A stretch of 64,000 nucleotides of DNA from IMG/VR virus record IMGVR_UViG_3300002219_000133; one strand, written 5' to 3'. The first letter of the stretch is position 1. Each line of letters starts with the position of its first letter. Under the pieces are notes generated by a model. That model was not told the DNA's origin, searched no databases, and saw only the letters and a program-made list of their open reading frames with translations. Below are positions 5,694 to 63,283 of the stretch, in pieces. Source of the stretch: an uncultured virus (IMG/VR IMGVR_UViG_3300002219_000133). Its lineage: Duplodnaviria; Heunggongvirae; Uroviricota; Caudoviricetes. Both the position numbers and the translations under genes were made by a program.

Positions 5694-5749
5694 AATAAAA
5701 AAATGCATTACAATATATAATGAAACAAATACATTGAAAGAGGTTAAAA

Positions 5750-7042: not shown

Positions 7043-7062
7043 ATGAATTTGGTTAATAAAAG

Positions 7063-10367: not shown

Positions 10368-10899
10368 AATTATTTAAGGTTCATTTTATTGATAAAAGAA
10401 CATATCCAGTTTATGTTGTTGCAAAATCATTTGATGATGCGTCTGAAGAAGTAATATTTCAAATAAATTCAATGATCGCAAAATCACCAAAAGTTGAAAA
10501 AATAGAGATTATTGCAGATGAGAGCGGTGCATTAAGTTACACATGTCAAAGTAGTTCACCAAGACTATTTATTGCTAGAAGTTATGATGAATCCGTTAGA
10601 AGGAATGAGTAATGAAAAACACAAGAAAACAACAACTTTTGAATAGTATTTTAGCAGCAAATCAATTCATTCAATCGGCGGAAATAGCTCTTGATGAAAT
10701 AATTAAATACCAGAATACACAATATGAAGAAGGATATAAAAATGAACCTAAGCCAAGTATAAAGTTTGGAAGATGCAAAAATCTAAGTTCAGAACTTAGT
10801 TATCAGTTGGTTGAATTGCGTAGAACCAATCTATAAAACCATAATTAAAATTTACGCAAACGTTGTATAATAAACATAATTTAAACTAGGAGAAATGAA

Positions 10900-15038: not shown

Positions 15039-16877
15039 ATGCTCAAACTCAATAAAACACAACTTCAAGAATTAGAAAAATTTGTTGAGCATTATCAGAA
15101 TTCAATAAACGCGGCGAGTGGATCATTAGTGGATGCGAATGCTAATGTGACTGAGAAAAATGTGATAACAATGATGGGTGAATTTGTTAAACCTATCATG
15201 ATTCAATATAATCGACATATTAGATATGATCAAATTCAAAAAAATTTCGGTAAGGAAGTAGCTGATCAATATCTAAAAGATATAGAAAATCATACAATAT
15301 ACGTTCATGACGAATCCCGCGCTAGTGTGCCTTATTGTTTATCAATATCACTTTTCCCATTCTTAAATCATGGTTCAACTTGTATTGGTGGAAACACTGA
15401 AGCACCGAAGCACCTATCTTCATTTTGCGGCGGATTTATTAATTTGATTAACCAGATTGCAGCTCAAGTTGCTGGTGCTGTTGCCACACCTTCATTTTTA
15501 GTATGTTTTGATTATTTTGCAAGAAAAGATTATGGTGATAATTATTTAGAAGATCATAAGAAAGAAATAGATCAATATTTACAAGCCGTCACTTATTATT
15601 TAAATGAACCTTGTTCGGGTCGAGATGGTCAGTCAGTATTCTGGAATATATCTATCTTTGATGAAACATATTTAAAGGGTCTCTATTCTGATTTTGTTTA
15701 TCCAGACGAAAACTTTTCGAGAGTTAATTTTGAATATGTGAATAAACTTCAAAAATATTTCCTCAAATGGTTCAATAAAGAAAGAACAAAGAAATTATTA
15801 ACATTCCCCGTTATTACTTGCGCTATGGCTTATGATGAAAATAAAAATATCAAAGATCAAGAATTTTCATCCTTTATAGCCAACGAATTATCTGAAGGTA
15901 GCGGATTTTTTGTTTATCTATCTGATAATATAGATTCACTTTCAAGTTGTTGCAGATTAAGAAATGAATCTAAGAATGAATTTTCTTATACTCTCGGAAA
16001 TGTTGGAGAAATGACTGGTTCTGTTCATGTTATAACAATCAATATGAATAGATTCATTCAGAACACTAAGAGAGAGTATAATACAAATCAACAATCGTTT
16101 GATAGTTTTCTCAATGAGAAATTAAAAGAACTTATTCAAAGAATACATAAATATCATTATTCAACAAGAGAAATTTATAGACATATTATGGAAAAGAAAA
16201 TGTATTCTGTTTATAATGCTCAATTCATTAAAATGGATAGACAATTTTCGACTATCGGTATAAATGGTCTAGTTGAGGGTGCTGAATTTCTTGGTTATAG
16301 TATCGATCCTAACGAAGCTTATATGAATTTCTGTTCAGAGCTTTTGAAAACAATTTCAACAGCCAATAAAGAAGCTAAACAGATTTATAAAGTTATGTTC
16401 AATACTGAATTTGTTCCTGGCGAAAATGCTGGTTATAAATTAGCTCAGTGGGATAAAAAAGATGGATATGTTGTTCCAAGAGAATGTTATAATTCATATT
16501 TTTATCGTGTTGAAGATAATTCTTTGAATATAATTGATAAAGGTAAATTGCATGGTGATCAAGTAACAAAATATCTTGATGGTGGTAGTGCTTATCATAT
16601 TAACTTAGAAGAATATTTGAATGCCGCACAATATGAAAAAATGTTTCATATTATGGCAATATTAGGAGTCAATTATTTCTGCACTAATGTTAAGATAACT
16701 TGTTGTGAAGAAAAAGATTGCGGTTTTATTGATAAAAGAACGCTATCGAAATGTTCAAAATGCGGCGGTGAAAATATTTCACATGCCACCAGAATAATAG
16801 GGTATCTCCGAAAAGTAAGCAATTTTTCAGAAGCTCGCCAAGTCGAAGAATCTTTAAGATTTTATCATAAAGAATAA
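15039..16877 (+). CDS. nrdD: Anaerobic (class III) ribonucleotide reductase
   Basis: YVHD, PYC, SSCCRLRN, TIGINGL, VPGEN, C-terminal CSKCG and glycyl-radical motif TRIIGYL. Confidence 0.95.
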   Translation: MLKLNKTQLQELEKFVEHYQNSINAASGSLVDANANVTEKNVITMMGEFVKPIMIQYNRHIRYDQIQKNFGKEVADQYLKDIENHTIYVHDESRASVPYCLSISLFPFLNHGSTCIGGNTEAPKHLSSFCGGFINLINQIAAQVAGAVATPSFLVCFDYFARKDYGDNYLEDHKKEIDQYLQAVTYYLNEPCSGRDGQSVFWNISIFDETYLKGLYSDFVYPDENFSRVNFEYVNKLQKYFLKWFNKERTKKLLTFPVITCAMAYDENKNIKDQEFSSFIANELSEGSGFFVYLSDNIDSLSSCCRLRNESKNEFSYTLGNVGEMTGSVHVITINMNRFIQNTKREYNTNQQSFDSFLNEKLKELIQRIHKYHYSTREIYRHIMEKKMYSVYNAQFIKMDRQFSTIGINGLVEGAEFLGYSIDPNEAYMNFCSELLKTISTANKEAKQIYKVMFNTEFVPGENAGYKLAQWDKKDGYVVPRECYNSYFYRVEDNSLNIIDKGKLHGDQVTKYLDGGSAYHINLEEYLNAAQYEKMFHIMAILGVNYFCTNVKITCCEEKDCGFIDKRTLSKCSKCGGENISHATRIIGYLRKVSNFSEARQVEESLRFYHKE

Positions 16878-16928
16878 AAATTATCCTCTGTATTATATGT
16901 TATTATATTAATACAGAGGATAATTTTT
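16876..16928. terminator. Long inverted repeat after nrdD
   Basis: AAAAATTATCCTCTGTATTA ... TAATACAGAGGATAATTTTT, 20-bp arms. Confidence 0.7.
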
Positions 16929-16964
16929 ATGAGATGTTATAATTGTTTTTCAGGAGTTGAAGTA

Positions 16965-17135
16965 ATGAAAAATTAGTCAAAAGTTATTGGAACACTATTA
17001 GACGATTTAAGTTCTTCTAATTTTGGTATTAGATCAATCGAAAGTTTCGAATATCCAGAACTTAAAAAGATTCAATCAGATTTAAAAAAATTGCGTGGTG
17101 ATGTTGATAATTTATTTTATAAAATTAAAGTTTGA
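16965..17135 (+). pseudogene. Probable pseudogene of a capsid-targeting-family small protein (TAG at codon 4)
   Basis: AGGAG RBS, then ATG AAA AAT TAG TCA AAA GTT ATT; open for 52 more codons; TAG sits where family members have TGG (Trp). Confidence 0.55.
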
Positions 17136-17145
17136 TTAAATAATT

Positions 17146-17210
17146 GTTTACATACAATCTCCTTTGGTGTATAATCTTATTATAGATAAAAACACTAAAG
17201 GAGATTTTTT
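17146..17210 (+). promoter_or_regulatory. Early-type promoter embedded in an RBS-occluding terminator hairpin
   Basis: GTTTACA-17 bp-TATAAT; AATCTCCTTTGGTGT pairs with ACACTAAAGGAGATT, then TTTT ATG. Confidence 0.8.
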
Positions 17211-17597
17211 ATGAACATATTAGACTTCATCAATGCCTCAGTTTATAATCTTGGTCGAGTTGCTATTCAATTTAGAAATGAATATCATAAAAACTTAAAA
17301 ACACCTTCTAATTCAGCATCGTGGTATGCTCTAAACTCTTTCCGCGATGGATGGTTTAGAGTAAATGATTCTTACCAGATAACGTACACATTCGGACTCA
17401 AAATAAAAGAATTTGAAATTAGTGGAATTAATAAAACAATGTGGGGCAAGGGATATGCTATAAAAGCACAACTCACATACGAAACTCCTGCCAATGTAAT
17501 AGAAACAACTCCTGCATGGTTGTATGTTGAAGATGATGTTGATCTTAATGAAGTTGAAAAATACATTGAAGATAATAAAAAGTTTTGGGTAGATTAA
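17211..17597 (+). CDS. Hypothetical early protein
   Basis: ORF behind a strong promoter and AAGGAG RBS. Confidence 0.6.
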   Translation: MNILDFINASVYNLGRVAIQFRNEYHKNLKTPSNSASWYALNSFRDGWFRVNDSYQITYTFGLKIKEFEISGINKTMWGKGYAIKAQLTYETPANVIETTPAWLYVEDDVDLNEVEKYIEDNKKFWVD

Positions 17598-23397: not shown

Positions 23398-23450
23398 AAA
23401 ATTCATCCTAAGTAAATAATTATAAAATCATTTTACTTAGGATGAATTTT
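23398..23450 (+). promoter_or_regulatory. Hairpin occluding the regA RBS, with a TAAATA motif at the stem/loop edge
   Basis: AAAATTCATCCTAAGTAAA ... TTTACTTAGGATGAATTTT, 19-bp arms directly before the ATG at 23451. Confidence 0.65.
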
Positions 23451-23810
23451 ATGATAAAAATAAAAATTTGCAAAGATGAAGCTATTATTATTGAAACATT
23501 AGAGAGACTTGGTATTGGTAATCGCCAAATGAAGACTATGTATCCAAGTGTTTATTTAAAACGAACTATAAATGGATATGCATTATTTCATTTTAAAGAA
23601 TTGATGGAATCAGATGGTTTAACAGTTAATATAACAGAAGAAGATATTAACAGAAGAAATAGTATCATAAAGCTTTTAGAAAAATGGAATTTGATTAAAA
23701 TTGATGATGAATCATTTCCGAAAGAATTTGAAACTGTTTTTGTATATGTATTGTCATATGTTGAGAAGGTTGAATGGAAAATAAGTCATAAGTATAGAAA
23801 AAAATTTTAA
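23442..23810 (+). CDS. regA: Translational repressor RegA (probable start 23451)
   Basis: ETLERLGIGN, HFKEL...DG, RRNSIIKLLEKWNLI, KVEWKISHKY; follows gp62. Confidence 0.9.
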   Translation: MNFMIKIKICKDEAIIIETLERLGIGNRQMKTMYPSVYLKRTINGYALFHFKELMESDGLTVNITEEDINRRNSIIKLLEKWNLIKIDDESFPKEFETVFVYVLSYVEKVEWKISHKYRKKF

Positions 23811-23824: not shown

Positions 23825-24022
23825 ATGAAAAAGTTTTCAGAATATGTTGGAGAAAATGTTATAGACAATGGTCAATATAGAATATCAATTAAAGATGGCT
23901 CTGATATTATAACATTTGTTAATGATAACGGCGAAATTTTTATTAAATTTAATCGCGAGCCAATTCAATTAAATGCAGCGGATAGTCAAAAACTTATTAG
24001 TTGGTTTGTAAATCAATCGTAA
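23825..24022 (+). CDS. Putative internal head protein
   Basis: MKKFSEYVGE; N-terminal similarity to 37109..37372. Confidence 0.5.
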   Translation: MKKFSEYVGENVIDNGQYRISIKDGSDIITFVNDNGEIFIKFNREPIQLNAADSQKLISWFVNQS

Positions 24023-24390
24023 GGACATAAATATGAAATGGAATAAACTAGTATTAGAAGAAGCTAATAAAATATCTTTTTATAAACATCCTAGAGGTAA
24101 ATCTGGTGTATATAAAAATTTGACTGCTGCTCAGACTGATAAATTAGTTAAAAATTTAGAAGATTGGCGAGATACTGAAATAAGCAAGTTTTTGATGGAA
24201 TTAGAAACTAGTGATGATTATACCAGAACTATCGGAGTAAGATTTAATAATGTAGCATTTGGTATTTATGGACGAGATGGTATAGTTAGAATTGCTACGG
24301 GTGATATGTATTCGACAGCAAAAGTATTAAATCAATATTTGAATATCGATGAGTTTATTAATTCACTATAAGGACATAAATATGAAATGG
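24020..24390 (+). repeat. 22-bp direct repeat TAAGGACATAAATATGAAATGG at 24020-24041 and 24369-24390
   Basis: Identical stop+RBS+MKW start sequence flanks the 24033 gene. Confidence 0.85.
24033..24371 (+). CDS. Putative internal head protein, paralogue of 23052..23393
   Basis: MKWNKLVLEE; internal similarity to 23052. Confidence 0.55.
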   Translation: MKWNKLVLEEANKISFYKHPRGKSGVYKNLTAAQTDKLVKNLEDWRDTEISKFLMELETSDDYTRTIGVRFNNVAFGIYGRDGIVRIATGDMYSTAKVLNQYLNIDEFINSL

Positions 24391-24660
24391 CATCAAATAT
24401 TAATGGAAGAAAATTTTTCAATAAAAGAAAAGAAAAATAATTGGATTTTCGGAAATATTGATAAATATCGTTTTGAAGCAGAGTACACTAATCAGCCTTC
24501 GTCAATGGGTATTAACGATGGAAGAATAAGTAAATTATTTTTATTTGATAATAAAACACTAATTGCTTCTTATGAACGCGGATATGATGAAGAAATAGAT
24601 AAATCAATAATCAAAACATGGAACAAATTAATAGAATATTTGGAAAAAGAATTAGAATAA
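24382..24660 (+). CDS. Putative internal head protein
   Basis: Start reassigned to the ATG at 24382 (AAGGA RBS): MKWHQILMEE; PSSMGINDGRISKL...YERGYD domain. Confidence 0.55.
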   Translation: MKWHQILMEENFSIKEKKNNWIFGNIDKYRFEAEYTNQPSSMGINDGRISKLFLFDNKTLIASYERGYDEEIDKSIIKTWNKLIEYLEKELE

Positions 24661-24729
24661 TATAATTAAAAAAGAAAAGATTAGTATATTTTATCTATAC
24701 TAATCTTTTTTCATGAAAGGTCATTTATA

Positions 24730-25227
24730 ATGAATTTTGAATTCGCTAAAGTAAGAGAAGTAAAGTCACCATTACGTGGAACCGAAAAATCTGTTGGCAT
24801 TGATTTTTTTGTTCCGGAATTTGATGAAAAATTTGTTAGAGATTTAAAAGAAAAGAACCCAAATATTAGTATTATTGATGAAAAAATTATTCAAATTATG
24901 CCTCAAGAGCATGTTCTTATTCCATCTGGCATAAAAGTAAAACTTCCATCAAACTATTTTCTTAATGCTTTTAATAAATCAGGGGTTAGTTCAAAGAAGC
25001 AATTAATTAAAATGGCTGAAACTGTTGATGAAGATTATCAAGGTGAAGTTCACATTTCTATTCTTAATGCTGGACGAAAAATTCAGACTATTACAGAACA
25101 TGAAAAGCTTATTCAATTTATTCTTCTTCCAGCATTATATGCTAATATTATTGAAAAAGATCAAGATAGTATTTATACCAATATAACCAAACGAGGAGAT
25201 GGCGGTTTTGGATCAACAAATAAATAA
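24730..25227 (+). CDS. dut: Trimeric dUTPase
   Basis: GIDF, NKSG, TVDEDYQGE, LIQ, RGDGGFGST. Confidence 0.92.
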   Translation: MNFEFAKVREVKSPLRGTEKSVGIDFFVPEFDEKFVRDLKEKNPNISIIDEKIIQIMPQEHVLIPSGIKVKLPSNYFLNAFNKSGVSSKKQLIKMAETVDEDYQGEVHISILNAGRKIQTITEHEKLIQFILLPALYANIIEKDQDSIYTNITKRGDGGFGSTNK

Positions 25228-26386
25228 TTTAACTTGGTGTAGTATAATTCCATTGATAGGCGGTTTAACACTTGGTGCTCAGAATGTACTAAAAACGCTA
25301 CCAGAATATATAATATCCTTTGATGGATTTCAAGATAATGATAGTCACACTCTAAACCACTTTAAAAATGATAATATTCCATATCTTAATGGAGATAAAT
25401 TAGAAAATATCGATAAAGTTGATATGACCGTAATGGTTCCGCCATGTAGCGCTTTATCTAATTTAAACGTTAAAAGCGATACTGAATATGAATCAATAAA
25501 GTGGTTATACATTTCGACTAAGATAGCTATGGAGAAATGCGAAGCTAAAGTTATCATAGGAGAAAATGCTCCGGGTTTGTTTACTAAGAAGGGAAAAGCT
25601 GTCGTAGATCAACTTCATCAAATTGGTCTTGAACATGGTTATTCATTAAGTATTTTTAAAATAGATTCTAAATATTGTAATTGCCCTCAGCAAAGATTAA
25701 GATCATTTTTTGTGTTTTGGAAAGGTGATCATACATATGAATTAGAACCGAAATGCGAAATGATTAAGATAGATGATTATCTTAAAAAAACTAAGTTGAA
25801 TATGAAATATCATAATGAAAAAGAAGAAGAAGACAGACTAATTAATTCAGCTCAGTATAAGTTTATTAAATATGAAATGAAACAAGAACTTAGTCAATTC
25901 TTAGATGGTGTTGGCTTTATTCAAAGATTGTTTAAGAATAACTTAATTGATAAATTTGAACAATTTCTTATAAACAATAAATTTGATAAAGATCTAGCTT
26001 TAATAAAACATATTAAATATAAATTATCGATTGGAAAAAGTTTTTGGGATTCATATTCCATTTATGATACTCATACTAGAGGTTGCACAAACGCATTAAC
26101 GGGTAAAACGATTAAAACATTATTACATCCATATAAAGATAGATTTTTAACCAATGCTGAATTGATTGCGATTATGGGTTTACCATTTGATTATGAAATA
26201 GTTAATGATAAACTTATTCATATTACTCAAAATGTGACAGTTCAATCGGCTGAATTTATGGTTAAAGAATGTAAAAAATATTTTACAAATAATTTAAGAA
26301 AAATAAATTCTACATTAAATTATCAAGATTTAACAATAAGTGATAATATAAAACCAGAAACAATTGAGCTTAACAATTTATTTTAA
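25199..26386 (+). CDS. DNA cytosine-C5 methyltransferase-like protein
   Basis: PPCSALS (motif IV), GENAPGL (VI), PQQRLRSF (VIII), RFLT.AE...MGLP.DY (IX); atypical motif I (IPLIGG) and X (TQNV). Confidence 0.75.
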   Translation: MAVLDQQINNLTWCSIIPLIGGLTLGAQNVLKTLPEYIISFDGFQDNDSHTLNHFKNDNIPYLNGDKLENIDKVDMTVMVPPCSALSNLNVKSDTEYESIKWLYISTKIAMEKCEAKVIIGENAPGLFTKKGKAVVDQLHQIGLEHGYSLSIFKIDSKYCNCPQQRLRSFFVFWKGDHTYELEPKCEMIKIDDYLKKTKLNMKYHNEKEEEDRLINSAQYKFIKYEMKQELSQFLDGVGFIQRLFKNNLIDKFEQFLINNKFDKDLALIKHIKYKLSIGKSFWDSYSIYDTHTRGCTNALTGKTIKTLLHPYKDRFLTNAELIAIMGLPFDYEIVNDKLIHITQNVTVQSAEFMVKECKKYFTNNLRKINSTLNYQDLTISDNIKPETIELNNLF

Positions 26387-26396
26387 AGGATATATT

Positions 26397-26711
26397 ATGA
26401 ATGAGATTGCTTTTAAAGGCGAAAAAGATAGTAAAGGAAAACTTAGAGTAGATTTAGTAACGCCTGAATGTATTATTGGCATGGCTGAAGTTCTAGGAAA
26501 AGCATTAGAAAAATATACTCCAAATAGTTGGCAAAATGTGAAAGATGGTTTAAACGAGCATTACGCTGCGGTATTACGTCACCTTCTTAAATGGCGTATG
26601 GGCGAATTAGATGATGACGAAACAAAACTAAGTCATATGAAACATGTTTTAACTAATGCAATGTTTCTGTTATATCATGAAGAACATTTGTTGAGAAATA
26701 AAAATGAATAA
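26397..26711 (+). CDS. dNTP diphosphohydrolase (DUF5664 / dATP-dGTP diphosphohydrolase-like)
   Basis: K.D.GKLR.DL, KY.PNSW, AAVLRHL..W..GE..D.ET.LSH..H...NAMFL. Confidence 0.8.
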   Translation: MNEIAFKGEKDSKGKLRVDLVTPECIIGMAEVLGKALEKYTPNSWQNVKDGLNEHYAAVLRHLLKWRMGELDDDETKLSHMKHVLTNAMFLLYHEEHLLRNKNE

Positions 26712-27402
26712 AAATGAATTAATAAAATACTATAAACAATTATATCAAAAATTGATATCCGAAGATTTTATTATAGATAAATCAGGAGTTAAATTAGTTG
26801 AATTGATTGCTCCAAGATTTGAATTAGATCCAAACGAAGATTTAATTGATATTGAAATTCGTTCTAGTAATGCTAAATATGTGTTACAAGAATTAGATTG
26901 GTATTTGAGTAATGAATTGCATATTAATCGTGTTAATAATGTACGGATATGGAAAGAATGCGCAGATAATAATCAAGAAATAAATTCAAACTATGGTTAT
27001 TTGGTTTTTGGTAGAGGAAATTTTAATCAATTTAATCACTGTTTGCAGACATTATTAAATCATAATGAATCAAGACAAGCTATTGTTATTTATAATCGTC
27101 CATCGATTCATTATGAAGCAAATAGTTTTAATTGTAAAGACTTTATTTGCACTATGTTTCAACAGTTTTTTATTCGAAATAATAAATTAGAAACTATTAC
27201 TAGTATGAGATCTAATGACTGTATTTTTGGCGCGTTTAACGATATTCCATGGTTCCATTATGTTATTAAAAAAATGAAAGAAGAATTAAATAATAATGGA
27301 CTTAATATTGAATTGGGACAGCATATATTTATTCCTAATTCTTGGCATTGTTATGAGCGTCATTTTGATATTTTAAGAAAAATCGGAGAACAATGTGAAT
27401 AA
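26704..27402 (+). CDS. gp42: dCMP hydroxymethylase (T4 gp42 family, thymidylate-synthase fold)
   Basis: DFIIDKSGVK, ELDWY, EINSNYG, SRQAIVIYNRPS, DFICT (catalytic Cys), MRSNDCIFGAFND (Asp at the dCMP-specificity position), H.YERHF; all co-linear with T4 gp42. Confidence 0.88.
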   Translation: MNKNELIKYYKQLYQKLISEDFIIDKSGVKLVELIAPRFELDPNEDLIDIEIRSSNAKYVLQELDWYLSNELHINRVNNVRIWKECADNNQEINSNYGYLVFGRGNFNQFNHCLQTLLNHNESRQAIVIYNRPSIHYEANSFNCKDFICTMFQQFFIRNNKLETITSMRSNDCIFGAFNDIPWFHYVIKKMKEELNNNGLNIELGQHIFIPNSWHCYERHFDILRKIGEQCE

Positions 27403-27802
27403 ATTTGATAATTTGTATATGGATATTGCAATTCGAATAAGCCAGATGAGTTTTTCTAATAGATCAAAAGTTGGTGCTGTAATAGTTAAAGAGAATAATA
27501 TCGTTGCTTTTGGTTGGAATGGAATGCCATCTGGCTTTTCTAATTCTTGTGAAGATGAAAATAATAATACACACGACGAAGTTATTCATGCTGAAGAAAA
27601 TGCCATTTGTAAAGCTGCTAAACAAGGAATATCATTAAAAGACTCAACATTATATTTAACATTGAGTCCGTGTCCACATTGCGCAAAACTAATTATTCAA
27701 AGCGGAATAAAAAATGTTATTTATTTAGAAGAATATCGTATTAATAAGTGGATTGAATTTTTAAAAGAGTGTAATATTAATGTGAGGCATTATGATAATT
27801 GA
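27395..27802 (+). CDS. cd: dCMP deaminase
   Basis: KVGAVIV, GWNG, HAEENAI, LSPCPHCAKLI. Confidence 0.92.
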   Translation: MNKFDNLYMDIAIRISQMSFSNRSKVGAVIVKENNIVAFGWNGMPSGFSNSCEDENNNTHDEVIHAEENAICKAAKQGISLKDSTLYLTLSPCPHCAKLIIQSGIKNVIYLEEYRINKWIEFLKECNINVRHYDN

Positions 27803-28364
27803 ACATAGAATAAATACAATTGGAGAATTAAAAAATGTTGATAAAAGTAACGGAATAGAAGTTGATATAAGATATGATTCTAGTGTTAAAGATGTCGTTC
27901 TTACACATGATATTAACTTTACCCATAATAATACCTTAAATGATTTTTTACATTATTATAACCACGCGTTAATAATATTTAACATTAAATCTAGTTTGTG
28001 CGAAGAGTATTGTATTCGATTAATGGAAAAGTTCAATATAAAAAACTACTTATTTCTCGATTCTCAAATTCCAGATATCATTAAATATGCTAAGCTGGGA
28101 TATGGGGATAAATTCATAACACGTATATCTAAATTTGAAACATATAATAAAAATTTAGTTTCATTGGCATCGAAGTATATATGGGTCGACACATTTGGTG
28201 AAGCGGATATTTCTTTCATAAATCAAAATGATAATCATGACTATATTTTTGTTTCTCCAGAATTGCATAAAAAAGATGAAAATATTGTTATATTAAAAGA
28301 AATGATAAAACAAAAATTTGATGTTTATCATGTTTGTACTGATTTTAAAAATTACTGGACATAA
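27792..28364 (+). CDS. GDPD/PLC-like phosphodiesterase-fold protein
   Basis: HRIN, GIEVDIR, LTHD, NIK, WVDTF, VSPELH, VCTD. Confidence 0.7.
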   Translation: MIIEHRINTIGELKNVDKSNGIEVDIRYDSSVKDVVLTHDINFTHNNTLNDFLHYYNHALIIFNIKSSLCEEYCIRLMEKFNIKNYLFLDSQIPDIIKYAKLGYGDKFITRISKFETYNKNLVSLASKYIWVDTFGEADISFINQNDNHDYIFVSPELHKKDENIVILKEMIKQKFDVYHVCTDFKNYWT

Positions 28365-28367
28365 TAC

Positions 28368-29684
28368 ATGTTTGATTTAAGCTTTATAGTTAAAAACAAA
28401 AAATTGTTAATAATAGATATTGATGACACAGTTTTGTCATATCAAAAAGCTCATGCTATTGCATTGAACGAAACGCTATCAAAATACAATTTTACAATTG
28501 ATGAATATAACAATAGTAAAGAATTAGTTAAGAAATTTATTAAGGGTGTTAATCAACATAAAAAAGAACTTTATTTTAAAAAAATGGTTGAAGATTCAAA
28601 CCATGATTATTCATTAGTACTCGAATTAACGAAAACATATAACTATTATTTATTTAAACACTTGGTGCTTGATGTATCAATAAAAAACTTATTAATTTAC
28701 TGCAAAAATAATAATATTAACATTTGCGCGTTATCCAATTTTTATTCATTAGATCAAATCAAAAAATTGAAAAAATTAAACATACTTCAATATTTTAATC
28801 ATATAATAACCAGTGAAGATATTGATATAGAAAAGCCAAGTCCATTCATTTATTCATTTATATTAGAAAAATTTAATCTTAAATATAATGATGCAATTAT
28901 GATTGGTGATTCAATAGTTGATATGCCATCATTCGGCATCGATTATTATCCATATAATTGTAACAATTTATTTTTTGCTATTTGTGGAAAATCTGGTTGC
29001 GGAAAATCTACACTAGCCATGCTATTAAAAGAAATATTTGGGGCAACAATTATTGAAGGCGATAATTATCATAAATATGAACGAAATAGCGATATGTATA
29101 AAATAATGACTCATTATGATTATAGAGCTAATAATATTGATAAAATGAATGACGATATTCGTAAGTTATTTTATTTAAAAAATATTTTATTGGCTCAATA
29201 TGATCATACAACTGGAAAATTCAATAATATATCTGAAGTTAAATATAATGACAAAATAATTTTTGAAGGTTTGCACTGGTTAAATTCAATTGAGACAAAT
29301 AAGTTTTTTAAATTTAAAATATTCATAAATAATTTTCATAGTGATGAAAATAAAATTAAGCGAGATACAAGATATCGAAACAAAACTAAAGAAACAGTAA
29401 TAGATTCAATCAATGCTCGTAGTAACGATTATGATAAGTTTATTTATATTCAAAATAAATGTAGTAATATGATATTCAATTATAATGAAACCGAACTAGA
29501 AATTGTTTTTACAAATGAATTTAATTTTGACATATTAAAAGCTATTTTTGAAAAATTAAATAATAATGTTATAATAGAACAAAATCAATTCAAAGTACGT
29601 TATTCAATTGCAAATAATATTCGTGAATATCGTTCGGTTATAGTTAAATTATTTAATTTGCTAAAAAGGAACATCTATGAATAA
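28368..29684 (+). CDS. HAD phosphatase fused to a phosphoribulokinase/uridine-kinase-like P-loop kinase
   Basis: HAD motifs DIDDT, LSN, EKP, MIGDSIVD; then GKSGCGKST, GDNYHKYER, YDHTTGKF, FEGLH. Confidence 0.8.
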   Translation: MFDLSFIVKNKKLLIIDIDDTVLSYQKAHAIALNETLSKYNFTIDEYNNSKELVKKFIKGVNQHKKELYFKKMVEDSNHDYSLVLELTKTYNYYLFKHLVLDVSIKNLLIYCKNNNINICALSNFYSLDQIKKLKKLNILQYFNHIITSEDIDIEKPSPFIYSFILEKFNLKYNDAIMIGDSIVDMPSFGIDYYPYNCNNLFFAICGKSGCGKSTLAMLLKEIFGATIIEGDNYHKYERNSDMYKIMTHYDYRANNIDKMNDDIRKLFYLKNILLAQYDHTTGKFNNISEVKYNDKIIFEGLHWLNSIETNKFFKFKIFINNFHSDENKIKRDTRYRNKTKETVIDSINARSNDYDKFIYIQNKCSNMIFNYNETELEIVFTNEFNFDILKAIFEKLNNNVIIEQNQFKVRYSIANNIREYRSVIVKLFNLLKRNIYE

Positions 29685-30345
29685 AACTGAAGCTACAAAA
29701 TACTATAAAAAATTGCAATCATTGGTGAGCAATTTATTTGATTCGCCTAGCATTGGCGGAAACATATCTGTAAAATATGATGACAAAATGTTAATAAAAT
29801 CTTCTGGTTCTAATTTAAAAAATGAAACAAAAATATCTATAATGAATAATGAAACAGACATGAATTTAAATAAGATTAAGCCATCTATGGAATATTCATT
29901 TCATAAAATTATACCATACAAATTTGTGCTGCACTATCATCCGATTTATCTTATGCCTTATCTCTGTTCTAATCATAAATTCGATTTACCTTTTAAATTT
30001 AAAATACTCGATTATCATATGCCAGGCGTTGAATTAGCAGGAGCTATTTTAAATAATTCCAAATATAATATTTATCTATTAAAGAATCACGGCATAATTC
30101 TTTGCCACAATGATATAGAACAAATTGAAGAAATGTATCGTTATATTAAAGAAAAATTTATTTCAATCTTAAAATTTAATGATTATATTTCTCCAGATGA
30201 TGTTATATTAAATAATGATATTGAAGTAATTCTTTATCATTGGGCAATAAGGGGATTATCAAATAACATCATATATTTAAATGATAATGATGTTAATGAT
30301 TTAAATTCAAATTCAGATGAAAAATATAGGAAAAATTTAATATGA
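29677..30345 (+). CDS. Class II aldolase / AraD-type sugar-phosphate epimerase family
   Basis: GGNISVK, IKSSG, KPSME..FH, LHYHP, LLKNHGII (Zn-binding histidines). Confidence 0.82.
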   Translation: MNKTEATKYYKKLQSLVSNLFDSPSIGGNISVKYDDKMLIKSSGSNLKNETKISIMNNETDMNLNKIKPSMEYSFHKIIPYKFVLHYHPIYLMPYLCSNHKFDLPFKFKILDYHMPGVELAGAILNNSKYNIYLLKNHGIILCHNDIEQIEEMYRYIKEKFISILKFNDYISPDDVILNNDIEVILYHWAIRGLSNNIIYLNDNDVNDLNSNSDEKYRKNLI

Positions 30346-31865
30346 ACATTATCATTCCGTGTACTGGCTTAGGCAAAAGATTTATTTCAAATGGTTATTC
30401 ATGCCATAAGTCTTTTTTGCCTGTTGATAATAACGATTTAGTAATAGATAAAGTTATTAAAATGTTTGATCCCAAAGATAATTTTATTATTATTGCTAAT
30501 GAATTTAATTACTCGGAATTAGTTAATCACTTTGTTAGATCAAACATTCATATCATTTTATCATATTATGAAGCCACCGGGCCAGTTAAATCTATTATAA
30601 ATGCAAAAAATAAAATATTAGATGTTTTACAAGATGAGGGATGCATAATATCATATTCGGATTTTTATCAAACATATGATTACTTAGATTTTAAAGAATG
30701 GATTAAAAACACAAATTCCGATGGCTGCATACTATCATACACAAATTATCATCCACATTTTAATGTCACAAATAATAAATATGCTTCGTCAAAACTAGAT
30801 AAAGACAATAATGTATTAGAAATAAAAGAAAAACATAATTTTGATTCAATGGAAAAAAGTTTTCATTCATCGGGAATGTATTATTTTAAATCGTTTGAAT
30901 TAATCATGAAATACTTCAATATTTTAATTGATAAAAATATTCATTTAAACAATGAATACTATGTTTCGATGGTCTATAATGAAATGATTAATGACAAGTT
31001 AAAGATAACATCATATAATAAAATTCATCACTTTCTACAGCTTGGAACACCCCAAGATTATGAATATTTTAAATCAATGGAAGATAAATATTTGAAATTG
31101 AATTCATTGTATATCAAAGAAAATAATATTAGACAAATAATGTTAATGGCTGGCCGATCAGAACGTTTTATTAATGACGGATATGATATACCAAAACCAT
31201 TTTTGATGGTATCCGATAAAAAAATGCATCTTATTCAAGATGATTATCTAAATTGCTATAAACGAACTTATATTACCGCGGATGATTATGAAGAGTATGT
31301 TGAAAAGGACATATATGACAAATATGTTTTTATTGAAAAAAATAAAATAGGACCGGCATATTCTTATTATAAAGGCGCTAAACATATAACAGGCGAAGTG
31401 ATCATAACTTCTTGCGATGTATTAGCTAATTATTTTACTAAGAATTTTTATGATAAAATTGATGAGAGCGATGTTATTATATTCGCCACAACCAATCATA
31501 AAAATTCAATAGAAAATCCTAATTCATATTCATGGATTAAACATGATAACGAAAAGGTTGAATCAGTATCATTAAAGAAACTATTGAATAATGCTAAAAC
31601 AGACTATATGTTAATTGGTTCATTTTATGTAAAAAATAATGAAACATTTATTCATCATCTGAATTCTTTCTTATCTATAGAAAAACAAAACAATGAAGAA
31701 TATTTTATTGATGAATTTATGAATTATTTATTACTTTTCGGATATAAAATTAATACTGTTCTTGTTGATGGTTATTATTCATTTGGAACACCAAAAGAAT
31801 ATAAAGAGTCTAATTATTTTTTAACCTATTTTGATAAAGAAAGTGAAACTAATGATAGAAATTAA
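30342..31865 (+). CDS. Tandem two-domain sugar-phosphate nucleotidyltransferase
   Basis: Two NTP_transferase modules: IIPCTGLGKRF...LGTPQD and MLMAGRSERF...PKPF...FGTPKE. Confidence 0.85.
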   Translation: MNIIIPCTGLGKRFISNGYSCHKSFLPVDNNDLVIDKVIKMFDPKDNFIIIANEFNYSELVNHFVRSNIHIILSYYEATGPVKSIINAKNKILDVLQDEGCIISYSDFYQTYDYLDFKEWIKNTNSDGCILSYTNYHPHFNVTNNKYASSKLDKDNNVLEIKEKHNFDSMEKSFHSSGMYYFKSFELIMKYFNILIDKNIHLNNEYYVSMVYNEMINDKLKITSYNKIHHFLQLGTPQDYEYFKSMEDKYLKLNSLYIKENNIRQIMLMAGRSERFINDGYDIPKPFLMVSDKKMHLIQDDYLNCYKRTYITADDYEEYVEKDIYDKYVFIEKNKIGPAYSYYKGAKHITGEVIITSCDVLANYFTKNFYDKIDESDVIIFATTNHKNSIENPNSYSWIKHDNEKVESVSLKKLLNNAKTDYMLIGSFYVKNNETFIHHLNSFLSIEKQNNEEYFIDEFMNYLLLFGYKINTVLVDGYYSFGTPKEYKESNYFLTYFDKESETNDRN

Positions 31866-32796
31866 TAATTCCTTTGAAAACTATCTGTCTGATCTTAATT
31901 CATATTCGTTTGTTATTGATGCTATACAATCTATGAAAGAATATGAAGAGAAAATACCAATTTGCGTGTTATCGTATAAGTATGATAAAAAACGATCGAA
32001 ATTTATTGTTCAATTGATGAATGAAATAGAACAAAACGGAAAATTAAACAGATCAATTATAATTTTTGTGTATGAAGAAGAAAAAGAACTTTATTCATTT
32101 TTATTAAAATACGATGGTATAGAACTTGTCTATATTAAAAAAGATAATGAAAATAGTACTTTATCTGGAAAAAGAAATTTTATCATTGATTATGCTAATC
32201 AACAGGGATTTAAGAACATTTTTATGATTGAAGACGATTGCGATAAGTTCTTTATTCCAATTCAAAAATTTAAAGAAACAAAATTTGCCAAAAACACAAA
32301 ATATCATTTATCAATTAAACTTACTTTTGATTTATGGGAGCATATTGCTTTAAGTAATAATTTTGTTATGACATCTCCATTGATAGAATTTGCAGTAGTA
32401 ATACAGCAACATTCTAAAATGTTTACTACTAACACAACATGCATTCAAATGTTTCAATTTAATATTGAATATTTAATTAAGAATAATTTGAAATTTGATC
32501 ATAAGAGTGGCTGGGATGATTTTGATATGAATATTCAAGTATTTGAATCAGGAGAAGATATTCATACATTATATCCATTGGGCTATTCGACAATATCTGT
32601 AAAATCAGGAAACAGCGTAATTGATAAGAATATCTTTGAACGATTTAAAAATAATTCATATATATTTTTGAACAAATGGGGTAGTAATAAAGTAAAAATT
32701 GTTGATAAACGTGGATTAATAAACGCTAGAATAGATTGGCGAAAATTAAAAAAGAATCGAAATCAACCAATCTTAGAATTATCAGACATTTTTTAG
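31852..32796 (+). CDS. GT-A fold DNA glycosyltransferase (beta-glucosyl-HMC alpha-glucosyltransferase / TET-associated GT-like)
   Basis: PICVLSY, IFVYEEEKELY, LSGKRNFIIDYA, IFMIEDD (DxD-type motif), WDDFD; ends in a clamp-binding-like LSDIF. Confidence 0.7.
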   Translation: MIEINNSFENYLSDLNSYSFVIDAIQSMKEYEEKIPICVLSYKYDKKRSKFIVQLMNEIEQNGKLNRSIIIFVYEEEKELYSFLLKYDGIELVYIKKDNENSTLSGKRNFIIDYANQQGFKNIFMIEDDCDKFFIPIQKFKETKFAKNTKYHLSIKLTFDLWEHIALSNNFVMTSPLIEFAVVIQQHSKMFTTNTTCIQMFQFNIEYLIKNNLKFDHKSGWDDFDMNIQVFESGEDIHTLYPLGYSTISVKSGNSVIDKNIFERFKNNSYIFLNKWGSNKVKIVDKRGLINARIDWRKLKKNRNQPILELSDIF

Positions 32797-32847
32797 TTTA
32801 CATACCATCTCCTATATGATAAGATAAATCATATAGGAGATTTTTTT
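32796..32847 (+). promoter_or_regulatory. Early-type promoter overlapping a terminator hairpin
   Basis: GTTTACA-17 bp-TAAGAT; ATCTCCTATATGAT / ATCATATAGGAGAT stem followed by a T run. Confidence 0.75.
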
Positions 32848-33150: not shown

Positions 33151-33960
33151 ATGAAAATGAAAAGTTCTAAAAATGTTGCAAAACCAGTAGTTGTTTCAGC
33201 TCGTGATCATGAAGCAGTTGTTGGTAGAACTGACTTCTATCGTATCGATCCTACTCAGATCAAAGTTGTTGATGGATGGAATCCTCGTGGTTCTTTTGAT
33301 GCAATCAAATTAGAAGAATTGAAAGATTCAATCAAAGAAAACGGTGTGTTGGTTCCTCTTAGAGTCAAAATCAATAACGAAGGAGAAATCATTCTTATTG
33401 ATGGCGAAAGAAGACTTAGAGCAGTTCTAATGGCGATCCGCGAAGGAGCTGAAATAGTATCAGTTCCCGCTATCGTAGAACGCAAAACAATGAATGAGAT
33501 TGATGCTCTTGTATTGGCTCTTACTGCTAATACTGGTGAACCTCTCACTATGGTTGAAGAAGCTCATGCAATTAAGAAACTTACCAACTATGGATTAAAA
33601 GTGGATGAGATTGCAAAGAAACTTGGTAAGTCAATTCCAACAATTCTCAATAGAATTCAGCTTCTTGATGCAAGTCCTGAAATTATCGATTCAATGGAAA
33701 ATGGTGAAATCAGTTTCACAGATGTAAAGAAAATTGTAAAAGACTCTGATGGTCTTGCTAGTCAGAAGGAAAAGCTTGACGAAGTTAAAGAAAAGAAAGC
33801 GGCCAGAAAAGCATCTGGTCTTTCTAAACCCGGCAAAAAAGCATTTGTTAATCTTGTAGCAGAAATGCTTGAATGGCTTCAGGAATTAAACATCGAAAAC
33901 GTTGCTCAAGTTAATGAATTAATTGAAAAAGCCAATAATATGTTGGATAATGAAGACTAA
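33151..33960 (+). CDS. ParB/Srx-domain DNA-binding protein
   Basis: NPR, ELKDSIKENGVLVPL, LIDGERRLRA, followed by a helix-turn-helix (DEIAKKLGKS). Confidence 0.85.
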   Translation: MKMKSSKNVAKPVVVSARDHEAVVGRTDFYRIDPTQIKVVDGWNPRGSFDAIKLEELKDSIKENGVLVPLRVKINNEGEIILIDGERRLRAVLMAIREGAEIVSVPAIVERKTMNEIDALVLALTANTGEPLTMVEEAHAIKKLTNYGLKVDEIAKKLGKSIPTILNRIQLLDASPEIIDSMENGEISFTDVKKIVKDSDGLASQKEKLDEVKEKKAARKASGLSKPGKKAFVNLVAEMLEWLQELNIENVAQVNELIEKANNMLDNED

Positions 33961-34022
33961 TATATAAAATATCCGGTAGTGAAATATCTACCGGATATTG
34001 TTTAAGATAAGGAGATTTGAAA

Positions 34023-34709
34023 ATGAAAAAATANNNNNNNNNNNNNNNNNNNNNNNNNNNNNNNNNNNNNNNNNNNNNNNCTGAAAACAATCTGAGTCAT
34101 GATGGAGATTGTTTTGTTTACGATGAAGCTAAAGTTTATGGAGATGCTATAGTTTTTGGTAATGCTAGAGTTTATGGAGATGTTAAAGTTTATGGTAATG
34201 CTATAGTTTATAGAGATGCTAAAGTTTATGGAAATGCTATAGTTTATAGAGATGCTAAAGTTTATGGTAATGCTGTAGTTTATGGAGATGCTAAAGTTTA
34301 TGGTAATGCTGAAGTTTATGGAGATGCTAGAGTTTTTGGTAATGCTATAGTTTATGGATCTGCTGAAGTTTCTGGATCTGCTGAAGTTTATGGAGATGCT
34401 AAAGTTTATGGTAATGCTGAAGTTTATGGATCTGCTGAAGTTTCTGGATCTGCTGAAGTTTCTGGAAACGCTCAAATATTGCATGCAAAACATACAACAC
34501 AGGTCAAAACATTTCAATTATCGAAACATTGTATCACATTGGATGGTGATTATCTCAACATTGGATGTAAGTCCTTCACAATTGATCAATGGCTCAAAAA
34601 TTATCAAAAAATTGGTCAAATGGAAGAATACAGCGATAATGAGATTGAAGAATACGGATTGACCATTAAGCTAATAGAAAAAATAAGAAGATTAGGAAAA
34701 ACTATATGA
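34023..34709 (+). CDS. Left-handed beta-helix (hexapeptide repeat) protein, copy 1; spans an N gap
   Basis: About 18 repeats of A-[KIERV]-V-[YFS]-G-[DNS]; C-terminal IGCK...WL...EEY; paralogue of 54291..54929. Confidence 0.8.
   Translation: MKKXXXXXXXXXXXXXXXXXENNLSHDGDCFVYDEAKVYGDAIVFGNARVYGDVKVYGNAIVYRDAKVYGNAIVYRDAKVYGNAVVYGDAKVYGNAEVYGDARVFGNAIVYGSAEVSGSAEVYGDAKVYGNAEVYGSAEVSGSAEVSGNAQILHAKHTTQVKTFQLSKHCITLDGDYLNIGCKSFTIDQWLKNYQKIGQMEEYSDNEIEEYGLTIKLIEKIRRLGKTI
34034..34080. other. Assembly gap (N run)
   Basis: Run of n characters. Confidence 1.
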
Positions 34710-35098: not shown

Positions 35099-35812
35099 AT
35101 GACAAAAATTTTAATGTTTGCTGGGCAAATTGGATCTGGAAAATCATATATTGTATCAAAGAAAGCTCAAGAATTAAAAGAAGTTGGAAATTCTGTTTTA
35201 ATGCTTTCATTTGCAGATCCAATTAAAAAATTTATAAAAGATGTTATTGGAGTGGATAAACACTCAATAAACGCTCATGTTGAAAATATGAATTTATCAC
35301 TACCATTTGAAAAGTTTGTTTCAGCATTTTTAGACAAGTTCAATAGACATCCTATGAAATATGTTTCAATGATTCAATTTAAAGAACAATACGAGAAATG
35401 CATAGAAGACTTAAATTCACAATATGAAAATGATGTTTTTTCTAGAGGTGTTCGAGGTCTTTATCAATTGGTTGGAACCGATATGGCACAATCTTTGAAT
35501 AAAGAAATGTGGCCAATTTGTTTGATGAATACGTTGCAGCCAATTCTAGACGATGTACACATCGATTATGTTTTAATAGATGATTGGAGATTTATCTTTG
35601 AATATTTTTCAAATCTTAGAAACTTTTCAGATTGTGAAGTTATTCCTTATTTTGTTACAGCCTCAGATGATACAAGAGCATTGAGACGTGGAATTTCTTT
35701 TGAAGAATTGAAGATACAGTCTCAGCATGTATCTGAAAGAGAATCAAATGAAGTTATTTTTAATTGGATGAAAATATATTTTCCAGATAATATGATTATT
35801 AATGAAGGGTGA
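35099..35812 (+). CDS. Deoxynucleoside monophosphate kinase (gp1-like)
   Basis: GQIGSGKS, SFADPIK, RGLYQLVGTD, IDDWRF.FE. Confidence 0.82.
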   Translation: MTKILMFAGQIGSGKSYIVSKKAQELKEVGNSVLMLSFADPIKKFIKDVIGVDKHSINAHVENMNLSLPFEKFVSAFLDKFNRHPMKYVSMIQFKEQYEKCIEDLNSQYENDVFSRGVRGLYQLVGTDMAQSLNKEMWPICLMNTLQPILDDVHIDYVLIDDWRFIFEYFSNLRNFSDCEVIPYFVTASDDTRALRRGISFEELKIQSQHVSERESNEVIFNWMKIYFPDNMIINEG

Positions 35813-36071
35813 TATATGAAATTATTTAAACTTTTTGTATTTTGTGTTTTACAAATGCCAATTTCAGTTTTTTACTATCTAGATCCAACGAATCCAATTT
35901 ATTTCATTATCTATCAATATGCTCTAACTTTGTTTATTTTCATGATGGATAACGCAATAAGCGAAAACATCTACAACATCAATGCTTTATATTATAACTT
36001 TGAAGAACTCTTAAAAAGAATCACCAAAGTTGTTCCAGCGAATAAAGAAGAAATCGAAAAGGAATTTGGTG

Positions 36072-36725
36072 ATGAATAACATAGAAGTAAAGCTTCTTCA
36101 TTATACTCCAATGACAATTCTATTGAATGCATTAGAGATGCCTTATCATAAAGAAAATGTTGATATGTTATTGGCTCAAAGAGTTATAAATGTTATGAAG
36201 CACGAATCAGTTGCAGAACATGTTAATATGAATTTTCTAATTGATGGAGTTTCACGATCTGAGCTTCAAGAACATATGCGACATAGGTTATCCTCAACAA
36301 CATGCGAGAGCACCAGATTCACACTCCAATTGATGCTAGAGACATTAGAAAATGATATGTATTCATTTGAAGATATACTAACAAAACATTTTGTTATACC
36401 TCCAATGAATAAAGAATCAGATTGGATTTTAAATGGAAATGCACCAACTGAGAATTATAAAGAATTTATAAATGATTTGCAGTCGTGGTATAGATTGTTT
36501 ATTATTTTCTTTGAAAGATGGAAGATTCGAGGTGTTAAAAATGATTATCTTAAATATGGATTAGTAGAAGGTTACAGAACAAGATTTATATGGACTATTA
36601 ATTTAAGATCATTGAAGAACTTTTTGAATTTAAGACTGTCTGATAGTGCTCATTTTGAAATTCGTCATGTTGCCAATTTAATCAGAGAAACACTTAGAAA
36701 CACGTATATTGAATCATTATGTTGA
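36072..36725 (+). CDS. thyX: Flavin-dependent thymidylate synthase
   Basis: HESVAEH, GVSR...QEHMRHRLSSTTCESTR, INLRSLKNFLNLR...AHFEIR. Confidence 0.9.
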   Translation: MNNIEVKLLHYTPMTILLNALEMPYHKENVDMLLAQRVINVMKHESVAEHVNMNFLIDGVSRSELQEHMRHRLSSTTCESTRFTLQLMLETLENDMYSFEDILTKHFVIPPMNKESDWILNGNAPTENYKEFINDLQSWYRLFIIFFERWKIRGVKNDYLKYGLVEGYRTRFIWTINLRSLKNFLNLRLSDSAHFEIRHVANLIRETLRNTYIESLC

Positions 36726-63276: not shown

Positions 63277-63283
63277 ATTTCAT

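Follow-up and report, generated by a model that had tools for sequence, protein, structure and literature searches.

The question raised by the locus described here is which modified base an operon makes that joins enzymes of cytosine nucleotide metabolism to sugar-processing enzymes and a glycosyltransferase, and where the sugar comes from. Glycosylating hydroxymethylcytosine is the classic way in which phages guard their DNA from restriction and CRISPR nucleases. The operon spans positions 24730-32796 (+ strand) of a 64,000-nucleotide stretch from an uncultured virus (IMG/VR record IMGVR_UViG_3300002219_000133), referred to below as the window. Our answer is that it probably makes glycosylated 5-hydroxymethylcytosine (hmC) in the phage's own DNA, with a nucleoside-diphosphate sugar (NDP-sugar) that the phage would build itself, likely from ribulose 5-phosphate. 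As such a phage would make its own sugar donor, it would not depend on a host sugar nucleotide. This answer is built on computational observations, namely protein families, catalytic signatures, conserved synteny and a cassette shared with other genomes, which are presented below.

Layout and setting of the operon

The window belongs to a T4-like phage of low G+C content (0.24-0.32), with homologues of the T4-type replication genes gp46/47, topoisomerase II, UvsX, NrdD, gp45, gp44/62, RegA, gp43, gp61 and gp32, as well as an NAD ligase. No near-identical DNA was found among 50,697 phage records. The ten open reading frames (ORFs) of the operon, all on the + strand, are sited 3' of regA (23442-23810), among the T4-type replication genes, like the arabinosylation cluster of RB69. 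Adjacent genes share 4-35 bases, and the sole gap, in one gene pair, is of 3 bases. Assigned to families by Pfam, PHROGs and NCBIfam, they encode in order a dUTPase, a C5-cytosine DNA methyltransferase-like (Dcm-like) protein, a MazZ-like diphosphohydrolase, a gp42-type dCMP hydroxymethylase, a dCMP deaminase, a GDPD-like phosphodiesterase, a HAD-phosphoribulokinase fusion, a class II aldolase-fold enzyme, a double nucleotidyltransferase and a glycosyltransferase. A terminator-like hairpin (32807-32841, +) with a 14-bp stem, a 7-nt loop and a TTTTTT tail lies 11 bases 3' of the last stop codon; the scan yields 3 such sites in a total of 9.5 kb, against 1.5 expected from shuffles. An earlier inspection of the DNA letters, the sequence-only reading, had listed this gene order, these families and a closing terminator, all of which were reproduced by the ORF list, the family searches and the hairpin scan.

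The base-forming enzyme

The product of the fourth gene (26704-27402, +; 232 residues) is a gp42-type dCMP hydroxymethylase that matches PF00303 with E 8e-17 and 61.8 bits against a cut-off of 24.3. Its closest solved relative is the T4 dCMP hydroxymethylase (1b49, E 2.7e-42), weaker ones being MilA (5e-10), true thymidylate synthases (about 1e-9) and E. coli ThyA (about 4e-9), and it is 37-41% identical to the enzymes of Tevenvirinae and Aeromonas phages. Signature positions were read from an alignment with E. coli ThyA, gp42 of the T4-like phage AR1, RB69 gp48 and the homologues of two related phage contigs (L010 and L012, see below). In ThyA numbering the window enzyme has Cys at 146 and Asp at 143, 169 and 177, its DFICT and FGAFND segments aligning with DFMCT and FGFRND of the T4 type and with APCH and LPFN of ThyA; the L010 and L012 enzymes carry the identical Asp signature, and RB69 gp48 has Glu at 143 and Asn at 169.

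According to the accessible part of Lee et al. (PMC13326640), Asp at ThyA-177 confers dCMP specificity, and the 5-hydroxy-dCMP synthases of RB69-type phages, which are flavin-dependent, are recognised by Asn at ThyA-169, present in all those tested. The Asp of the FND motif, which the sequence-only reading had taken as the dCMP-specificity residue, does align with T4 Asp179 and ThyA Asn177. Because Asp is kept at ThyA-169, where RB69 gp48 has Asn, the predicted product is 5-hydroxymethyl-dCMP (hm-dCMP) and not the 5-hydroxycytosine of RB69-type phages. Hence, of the two bases first considered, hmC or hydroxycytosine, only the former is retained. Also as claimed, a separate flavin-dependent thymidylate synthase, ThyX, is encoded outside the operon (36030-36725, +; PF02511 E 5e-33), therefore the ThyA-fold enzyme would not be needed for dTMP.

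The sugar cassette

Genes six to nine of the operon encode five parts that recur together elsewhere. The first (27792-28364, +; 190 residues) is a GDPD/PI-PLC-like TIM-barrel phosphodiesterase with no Pfam match, whose AlphaFold2 (AF2) model (pLDDT 94) finds the GDPDs 3ch0, 3i10 and 2pz0 as top Foldseek matches (E about 1e-4, TM-score 0.64-0.71). In an alignment of 20 sequences its His, Glu-x-Asp, His pattern is invariant and the Arg beside the first His nearly so, the invariant residues being H5, N8, E23, D25, H39, K66, R111, E116 and D133. Against solved structures its profile gave WbbM at a weak E of 0.003 and a GDPD at E 0.38.

The second gene (28368-29684, +) fuses a HAD phosphatase (residues 1-190; PF13419 E 5e-18) to a phosphoribulokinase (PRK)-like P-loop kinase (residues 200-380; PF00485 E 6e-22), with both HAD motif I (DIDDT) and the P-loop (GKSGCGKST) intact. 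Phosphoribulokinases are the closest relatives of the kinase domain (NF005655 E 2e-33; the solved PRK 6gve E 2e-20). The domain scores 116 bits against the NF005655 cut-off of 236 and covers profile positions 10-190 of 326, so that by these matches it is a PRK-like N-terminal core, without the C-terminal dimerisation half of a full PRK, and not a PRK equivalog. No match to the fusion protein was obtained by tblastn in the 50,697 phage records.

The third gene (29677-30345, +; 222 residues) encodes a class II aldolase-fold enzyme (PF00596 E 1e-12), which on comparison with FucA (2opi) shows PSMEYSFH, LHYH and NHG and retains the metal ligands (His-x-His, His) and the catalytic Glu; it probably works on a ketose phosphate, as an epimerase or an aldolase. 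The fourth (30342-31865, +; 507 residues) is a tandem double sugar-phosphate nucleotidyltransferase (phrog_3980 E 2.5e-62, TIGR03992 E 3e-12) with the G-x-G-x-R...K signature in both halves, where G9, G11, R13, K23, G271, R275 and K285 are invariant among 26 sequences. The Pfam scan found neither a reductase nor a SIS/arabinose-5-phosphate isomerase domain in the operon, the latter in agreement with what had been noticed from the bare sequence. The sugar block then proposed is real, with the correction that the GDPD-like gene is a fifth fixed member of the cassette and not a bystander.

The glycosyltransferase

The last gene (31831-32796, +) encodes a GT-A enzyme that belongs to the TET-associated (TAGT) family of phage DNA glycosyltransferases, with 45.2 bits for PF20691 against a cut-off of 27.5, and with E 1.5e-10 for phrog_842, the PHROG of the T-even beta-glucosyl-HMC-alpha-glucosyltransferase. 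It may start at TTG 31831 (321 residues) or at ATG 31852 (314 residues), the latter being used in public gene calls. Its DXD-type motif, IEDD, is invariant in a nine-sequence alignment. A sequence search of solved structures gave no match for the protein. Its AF2 model (GT-A, pLDDT 78, pTM 0.81) has TAGT-domain proteins as top matches in BFVD (E 5e-13), followed by the beta-glucosyl-HMC-alpha-glucosyltransferase of PKO111 (E 7e-7), while its fold matches in the PDB are generic GT-A enzymes (SunS, RmlT, TarP). Neither the operon genes nor the other scanned ORFs of the window, which do not include every small ORF, yielded a TET/JBP dioxygenase.

Linkage in related phages

Gene linkage was examined by tblastn over 15 of 27 loci. 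Left out were L003 and L007, further copies of the phage in the window at 100% identity, L011, a part of the L010 record, and nine loci (L016, L017, L020-L024, L026 and L027) with weak half-length matches of 22-23% identity on contigs of 1.8-17.5 kb. Four non-identical T4-like phage contigs, L010, L012, L013 and L014, carry a double nucleotidyltransferase 45-49% identical to that of the window. The TAGT gene lies directly 3' of it in all four, and the GDPD-like, HAD-PRK and aldolase genes are upstream in the window order in three, the remaining one (L014) being a fragment of 2.6 kb with its start within the aldolase gene. The TAGT relatives of L010 and L013 match PF20691 too.

Nucleotide-half genes accompany this block: a dUTPase directly in front of the cassette (L010 and L012, 45-52% identity), a Dcm-like gene (L010 and L013) and a hydroxymethylase within 5 kb (L010 and L012), each in two of the four contigs. 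The tie between the sugar block and a gp42-type gene, whose absence from related phages would have spoken for separate roles, is thus borne out in L010 and L012. L010 (1-21515) and L013 (1-16328) give whole genes only when TGA is read as a residue (table 4), the L010 hydroxymethylase match alone holding 5 in-frame TGA codons, and both look like TGA-recoded T4-like phages; the arrangement has therefore outlived a change of genetic code. L012 also encodes an extra GT4-type glycosyltransferase (15802-17310; PF20706, 'GT4-conflict') 4 kb 3' of the module, which could be a second glycosylation step and has no counterpart in the window.

The cassette in bacteria and other viruses

Full-length homologues of the double nucleotidyltransferase, with 34-37% identity, occur in many Campylobacter jejuni genomes, and 6 of 301 sampled Campylobacterales genomes contain one at E <=1e-30. 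All five cassette parts were found together in each of six bacterial loci (L004, L005, L006, L034, L035 and L036), all of them glycan loci of Campylobacterales or Pseudobdellovibrionaceae. The window order, from the GDPD-like gene through HAD, the PRK-like kinase and the class II aldolase fold to the double nucleotidyltransferase, recurs in C. volucris (L005), a Campylobacter sp. (L004) and L034, the parts of these three being 28-39% identical to those of the window. The HAD-PRK fusion is present too in L004 and L034, and in C. volucris a GDPD-like homologue of 39% identity is found directly 5' of the HAD gene. A Pseudobdellovibrionaceae metagenome-assembled genome (L006) holds the five parts in a different order.

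L005 and L034 are Campylobacter-type capsule loci, the latter with heptose genes, a DUF2972 protein and a glutamine-kinase-like gene, and L036 also carries GtrA, GT2 and flippase-type genes. Downstream of the bacterial cassettes lie GT2, GtrA or capsule genes, and no nucleotide-modifying gene is linked to them. Given their co-occurrence in bacterial glycan loci, the five parts thus form one unit, which feeds surface glycans in bacteria; that the sugar genes are a real conserved unit, also at home in bacterial capsule loci, is what these locus comparisons confirm of the sequence-only reading. A C. coli annotation names a 'HAD/phosphoribulokinase domain protein' beside capsule genes. The PRK-like domain can also form the C-terminal end of a larger bacterial protein (about 680 residues) whose long N-terminal part is unassigned, beside GtrA and GT2 genes (L036:3516-5564 and 10547-10912; L006:11239-13257).

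Among viruses, the complete genomes of cyanophages S-SM2 and Bellamy have the double nucleotidyltransferase and the aldolase in lipopolysaccharide (LPS)-like clusters, and neither has a hydroxymethylase or a TAGT gene. Atlas virus clusters show fusions of PRK with aldolase, aldolase with HAD, and GDPD-like with nucleotidyltransferase, which are taken as leads only.

Proposed pathway

For the operon as a whole we infer all substrates, the order of the sugar steps, the identity of the sugar and DNA as the acceptor. The MazZ-like pyrophosphohydrolase, the dUTPase or both would convert dCTP and dUTP to the monophosphates, and the gp42-type enzyme would turn dCMP into hm-dCMP, leftover dCMP being routed to dTMP by the dCMP deaminase and ThyX. 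A downstream dNMP kinase would phosphorylate hm-dCMP, which the polymerase could then incorporate. On the sugar side, for which we propose an order by analogy with the heptose and arabinose routes, the PRK-like domain would add a phosphate at C1 of a phosphorylated ketose, for which the 5-phosphates of ribulose and xylulose are the likeliest candidates, and the fused HAD domain would strip the distal phosphate (the 5-phosphate of a pentulose). The class II aldolase-fold enzyme may reset the stereochemistry at C3 or C4 by epimerisation, the double nucleotidyltransferase and the GDPD-like enzyme would convert the sugar phosphate to the NDP-sugar, and the TAGT GT-A enzyme would move the sugar onto the hydroxymethyl group in DNA. 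Glycosylation would shield the genome from restriction and CRISPR nucleases.

As for the sugar itself, the pentulose donor suggested by the sequence-only reading finds some footing in the kinase, nearest to phosphoribulokinases, and none in the E. coli O95/O97 O-antigen clusters, which have xylulofuranose in the glycan and no donor genes reported; it is not established. The xylulose-containing O antigen of Y. enterocolitica O:10 is likewise described without donor genes, and on these O95/O97 and O:10 descriptions the assignment of the cassette to a xylulose donor was dropped. An attempt to tie the cassette to a named Campylobacter capsule sugar established no match. The RM1221/HS:53 capsule contains xylulose, as stated in the accessible portions of two reports (PMC8707391, PMC10919079); translated HS53 typing primers had no match among 142 proteins, a result given no weight. 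In the literature searched, no publication was found that combines phosphoribulokinase, aldolase, nucleotidyltransferase and hydroxymethylcytosine in a phage.

A more specific version, which we think unlikely, is that the DNA bears a ketofuranose (e.g. xylulo- or ribulofuranosyl) on hmC and that the cassette is an undescribed route to an NDP-activated 2-ketose. The kinase would phosphorylate C1 of a pentulose 5-phosphate, removal of the 5-phosphate by the HAD domain would let the furanose ring close, and the aldolase-fold enzyme would epimerise the product. The first nucleotidyltransferase domain would then activate the 1-phosphate, the GDPD/PI-PLC-like enzyme would shift the phosphate to the anomeric O2 via a 1,2-cyclic phosphate, and the second nucleotidyltransferase domain would yield the true donor. 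Such a shift from O1 to the anomeric O2 could explain the presence of two nucleotidyltransferase domains and a GDPD-like enzyme. If true, this route would account for all five conserved parts and would explain the long-missing ketofuranose donors of bacterial capsules.

Points against the proposed base and alternative explanations

Several observations weigh against glycosyl-hmC made with a phage-built sugar. The phage itself is known only from assemblies. DNA as the acceptor would follow from the family membership of the glycosyltransferase alone, a protein with just 8 relatives among 5.8 billion proteins and with no tblastn homologue in the 50,697 phage records. The cassette is not DNA-specific, since it also sits in bacterial capsule/envelope loci, and hydroxymethylase and TAGT genes are both missing from the cyanophages mentioned above. 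The whole 16.3-kb contig of L013 has the cassette, the TAGT gene and the Dcm-like gene, and no hydroxymethylase by tblastn. The window also places a C5 methyltransferase-like gene within an operon expected to replace all cytosine, where its role is unexplained. G+C content is 0.235-0.246 in the sugar half (28001-32000) versus about 0.27 in the nucleotide half (24001-28000), and GC skew 0.07 versus 0.20, so that the sugar half may be a recent insertion or of separate origin, its coupling to the DNA pathway being assumed. The sugar assignment is further weakened by the O95/O97 clusters, by the HS:1 and HS:19 capsule loci (fructose, sorbose), for which the accessible portions of the reports describe no cassette genes (PMC7901785, PMC13276843), and by the literature searched, in which no paper assigning the cassette a product turned up.

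These points can be read in favour of other explanations. It is unlikely, in our view, that the cassette and glycosyltransferase glycosylate some non-DNA target, for instance the host envelope or a protein of the virion, and leave the neighbouring hmC unglycosylated. The service of the same cassette in bacterial capsule/envelope loci, the LPS-like cyanophage clusters with nucleotidyltransferase and aldolase and without hydroxymethylase, and the generic GT-A enzymes among the PDB fold matches all fit such a role, yet the glycosyltransferase scores above the curated TAGT cut-off, the viral models closest to it are those of TAGT proteins and of a hmC-DNA glucosyltransferase of the T-even kind, and the sugar genes overlap the nucleotide enzymes in one operon. 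Moreover, TAGT is fixed beside the cassette only in phages that also have hmC-type genes, and S-SM2 and Bellamy, with their LPS-like clusters, lack it. That the base is ordinary glucosyl-hmC or another host-donor adduct, TAGT using e.g. host UDP-glucose and the cassette product going elsewhere or unused, appears quite unlikely. Host UDP-glucose does serve the T4-type enzymes, as the available part of PMC13326640 states, the donor specificity of this TAGT clade is not established, and the two halves differ in G+C content and skew. However, TAGT directly follows the double nucleotidyltransferase in all four related contigs, at 43-48% protein identity and under two genetic codes, an adjacency that would be hard to explain without a shared function.

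A different linkage was also weighed, in which hmC bears a sugar phosphate or alditol phosphate through a phosphodiester, in the manner of teichoic acids, from an NDP-linked non-anomeric ketose or alditol phosphate. A kinase acting at the ketose C1 gives a non-anomeric phosphate, the cassette includes a GDPD-type phosphodiesterase, and in C. jejuni HS:5 fructose 6-phosphate is directly converted to the activated form CDP-6-fructose (PMC10918830, in its accessible part); a GT-A enzyme with a DXD-type motif is nevertheless the usual machinery of glycosyl and not of phosphodiester transfer, and with no reductase in the operon we rate this adduct as very unlikely. Finally, the thymidylate-synthase homologue might make 5-hydroxy-dCMP, and the base would then be a glycosyl-5-hydroxycytosine as in RB69 and DLP3. 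Both enzyme classes have Asp at ThyA-177 and an acidic side chain at 143, but position 169 is Asp here and Asn in all 5-hydroxy-dCMP synthases tested in what is accessible of PMC13326640, as in RB69 gp48 in our alignment, and the best solved relative is the T4 hydroxymethylase, at E 2.7e-42 versus 5e-10 for MilA, which makes this outcome extremely improbable. Glycosyl-hmC made with a phage-built NDP-sugar remains the explanation we favour.

Other genes of the nucleotide half and of the window

The operon opens with a trimeric-type dUTPase (24730-25227, +; 165 residues; PF00692 E 9e-13, phrog_135 E 3e-24, TIGR00576 E 5e-23), which would supply dUMP and keep dUTP low. The third gene (26364-26711, +; 115 residues) encodes a small all-alpha NTP diphosphohydrolase, MazZ-like (PF18909, the dATP/dGTP diphosphohydrolase N domain, E 9e-26; phrog_801 E 7e-29), a candidate dCTPase and functional counterpart of T4 gp56, and the fifth (27395-27802, +; 135 residues) a dCMP deaminase (PF00383 E 3e-27, phrog_174 E 1e-56), which would convert dCMP to dUMP for ThyX. 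The dNMP kinase-like protein (35099-35812, +; 237 residues; phrog_139 E 2e-9, and PF21448 at E 7e-4, under its cut-off), a candidate hm-dCMP kinase and counterpart of T4 gp1, is encoded 2.3 kb 3' of the operon, which is therefore nearly, though not entirely, self-contained as had been claimed.

The second gene (25199-26386, +; 395 residues) encodes the Dcm-like protein (PF00145 E 9e-18, 65.2 bits versus a cut-off of 22). The catalytic motifs are present in its translation as VPPCS, GENAPG, QQRLR and QNV, of which we take PC to be motif IV, ENV motif VI and QxRxR motif VIII. In the region of S-adenosylmethionine motif I (FxGxG) only 'PLIGGLTLG' is visible, and the Pfam match begins at profile position 45. 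A sequence search of solved structures gave no relative at E 1e-3. Homologues are found in L010, L013, Pseudoalteromonas phage vB_Psh_XG4 and cyanophage S-TIM54. In the last two this subfamily is also near thymidylate-synthase homologues with Asp at ThyA-177 (L041:202-780 and 5417-6526 for vB_Psh_XG4; L040:3105-3947 and 5977-7194 for S-TIM54), which suggests a functional tie of the C5 methyltransferase-like enzyme to cytosine modification at the nucleotide level.

Just 3' of the operon are genes for a ParB-like protein with ParB N-terminal and helix-turn-helix domains (33151-33960) and for a YdcK beta-solenoid/bactofilin-like protein (34017-34709, +), the latter with a paralogue at 54291-54974 (-) (phrog_7964, phrog_5070). 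Elsewhere, a 654-residue homing/HNH endonuclease-like ORF (12196-14160; phrog_3339 E 2e-150) separates the UvsX and NrdD genes, and a member of the Acb1 anti-CBASS phosphodiesterase family is encoded at 47157-47630 (PF23474 E 5e-14). The window further holds a tRNA nucleotidyltransferase gene (48338-49192), a gene for an HD-domain protein (53717-54298, -) with a weak match, under the Pfam cut-off, to tRNA nucleotidyltransferase domain 2, and genes for tRNA-Leu(taa) and tRNA-Gln(ttg) at 63192-63356 (-).

Significance and comparison with known systems

Each new sugar changes which host defences work and adds enzymology tools for tagging hmC. The donor pathway itself is uncharacterised biochemistry, common to the phage operon and to Campylobacter capsule loci. 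In the phage it comes in a compact form that is soluble and expressible and whose read-out would simply be a mass shift on one DNA base, so it could serve to solve the pathway for all systems bearing the cassette.

Compared with the glucosyl-hmC system of T4 (gp42, gp56, gp1 and the alpha- and beta-glucosyltransferases), the window has a gp42-type enzyme with the same signature on a T4-like backbone. Shared too are enzymes of the pyrophosphohydrolase, dNMP kinase and dCMP deaminase types and, by prediction, post-replication glycosylation. However, T4 uses host UDP-glucose and has no sugar pathway, whereas five cassette domains precede the transferase in the window, which also differs in its TAGT-type GT-A enzyme, its MazZ-like pyrophosphohydrolase, its use of ThyX for dTMP and its Dcm-like gene.

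The arabinosyl-5-hydroxycytosine systems of RB69, DLP3 and HY126, as far as the accessible part of PMC13326640 describes them, turn, as is proposed for the window, a pentose-phosphate intermediate into an NDP-sugar with a kinase, a HAD phosphatase and a nucleotidyltransferase, from a cluster beside a thymidylate-synthase homologue among replication genes. There the base is 5-hydroxycytosine and ThyA position 169 is Asn in place of the Asp of the window, a SIS arabinose-5-phosphate isomerase acts first and the nucleotidyltransferase and kinase are fused (AfhE type), whereas the window has no SIS domain and combines a PRK-type kinase fused to HAD, an aldolase fold, a GDPD-like enzyme and a tandem nucleotidyltransferase. 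Their transferases match GT-B enzymes (Table 1 of the same source), in contrast to the GT-A enzyme of the window.

In the TAGT phage systems the glycosyltransferase is associated with a TET/JBP dioxygenase, and a C5 methyltransferase-like gene is in the operon. The window operon shares the glycosyltransferase family and the C5 methyltransferase-like gene, but the scanned ORFs of the window include no TET/JBP dioxygenase and the hydroxymethyl group would come from the gp42-type enzyme at the nucleotide level. With the NDP-heptose pathway (GmhA, HldE/HddA, GmhB, HldC/HddC) it has in common the logic of phosphorylating a second position, removing the first phosphate with a HAD enzyme and nucleotidylating the product, without the SIS isomerase and the GHMP or PfkB kinase of that pathway, and with a PRK-type kinase, an aldolase fold and a GDPD-like barrel. 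The PRK cassette of Campylobacterales capsule loci comes with all five parts, in an order shared by L004, L005 and L034, but the bacterial copies are unlinked to nucleotide-modifying genes and the window copy is followed by TAGT. Judged by its enzyme families, the donor pathway resembles the arabinose and heptose routes solely in its logic of kinase, HAD enzyme and nucleotidyltransferase. The operon works like the T4 glucosyl-hmC and RB69 arabinosyl-5-hydroxycytosine systems and is a member of neither.

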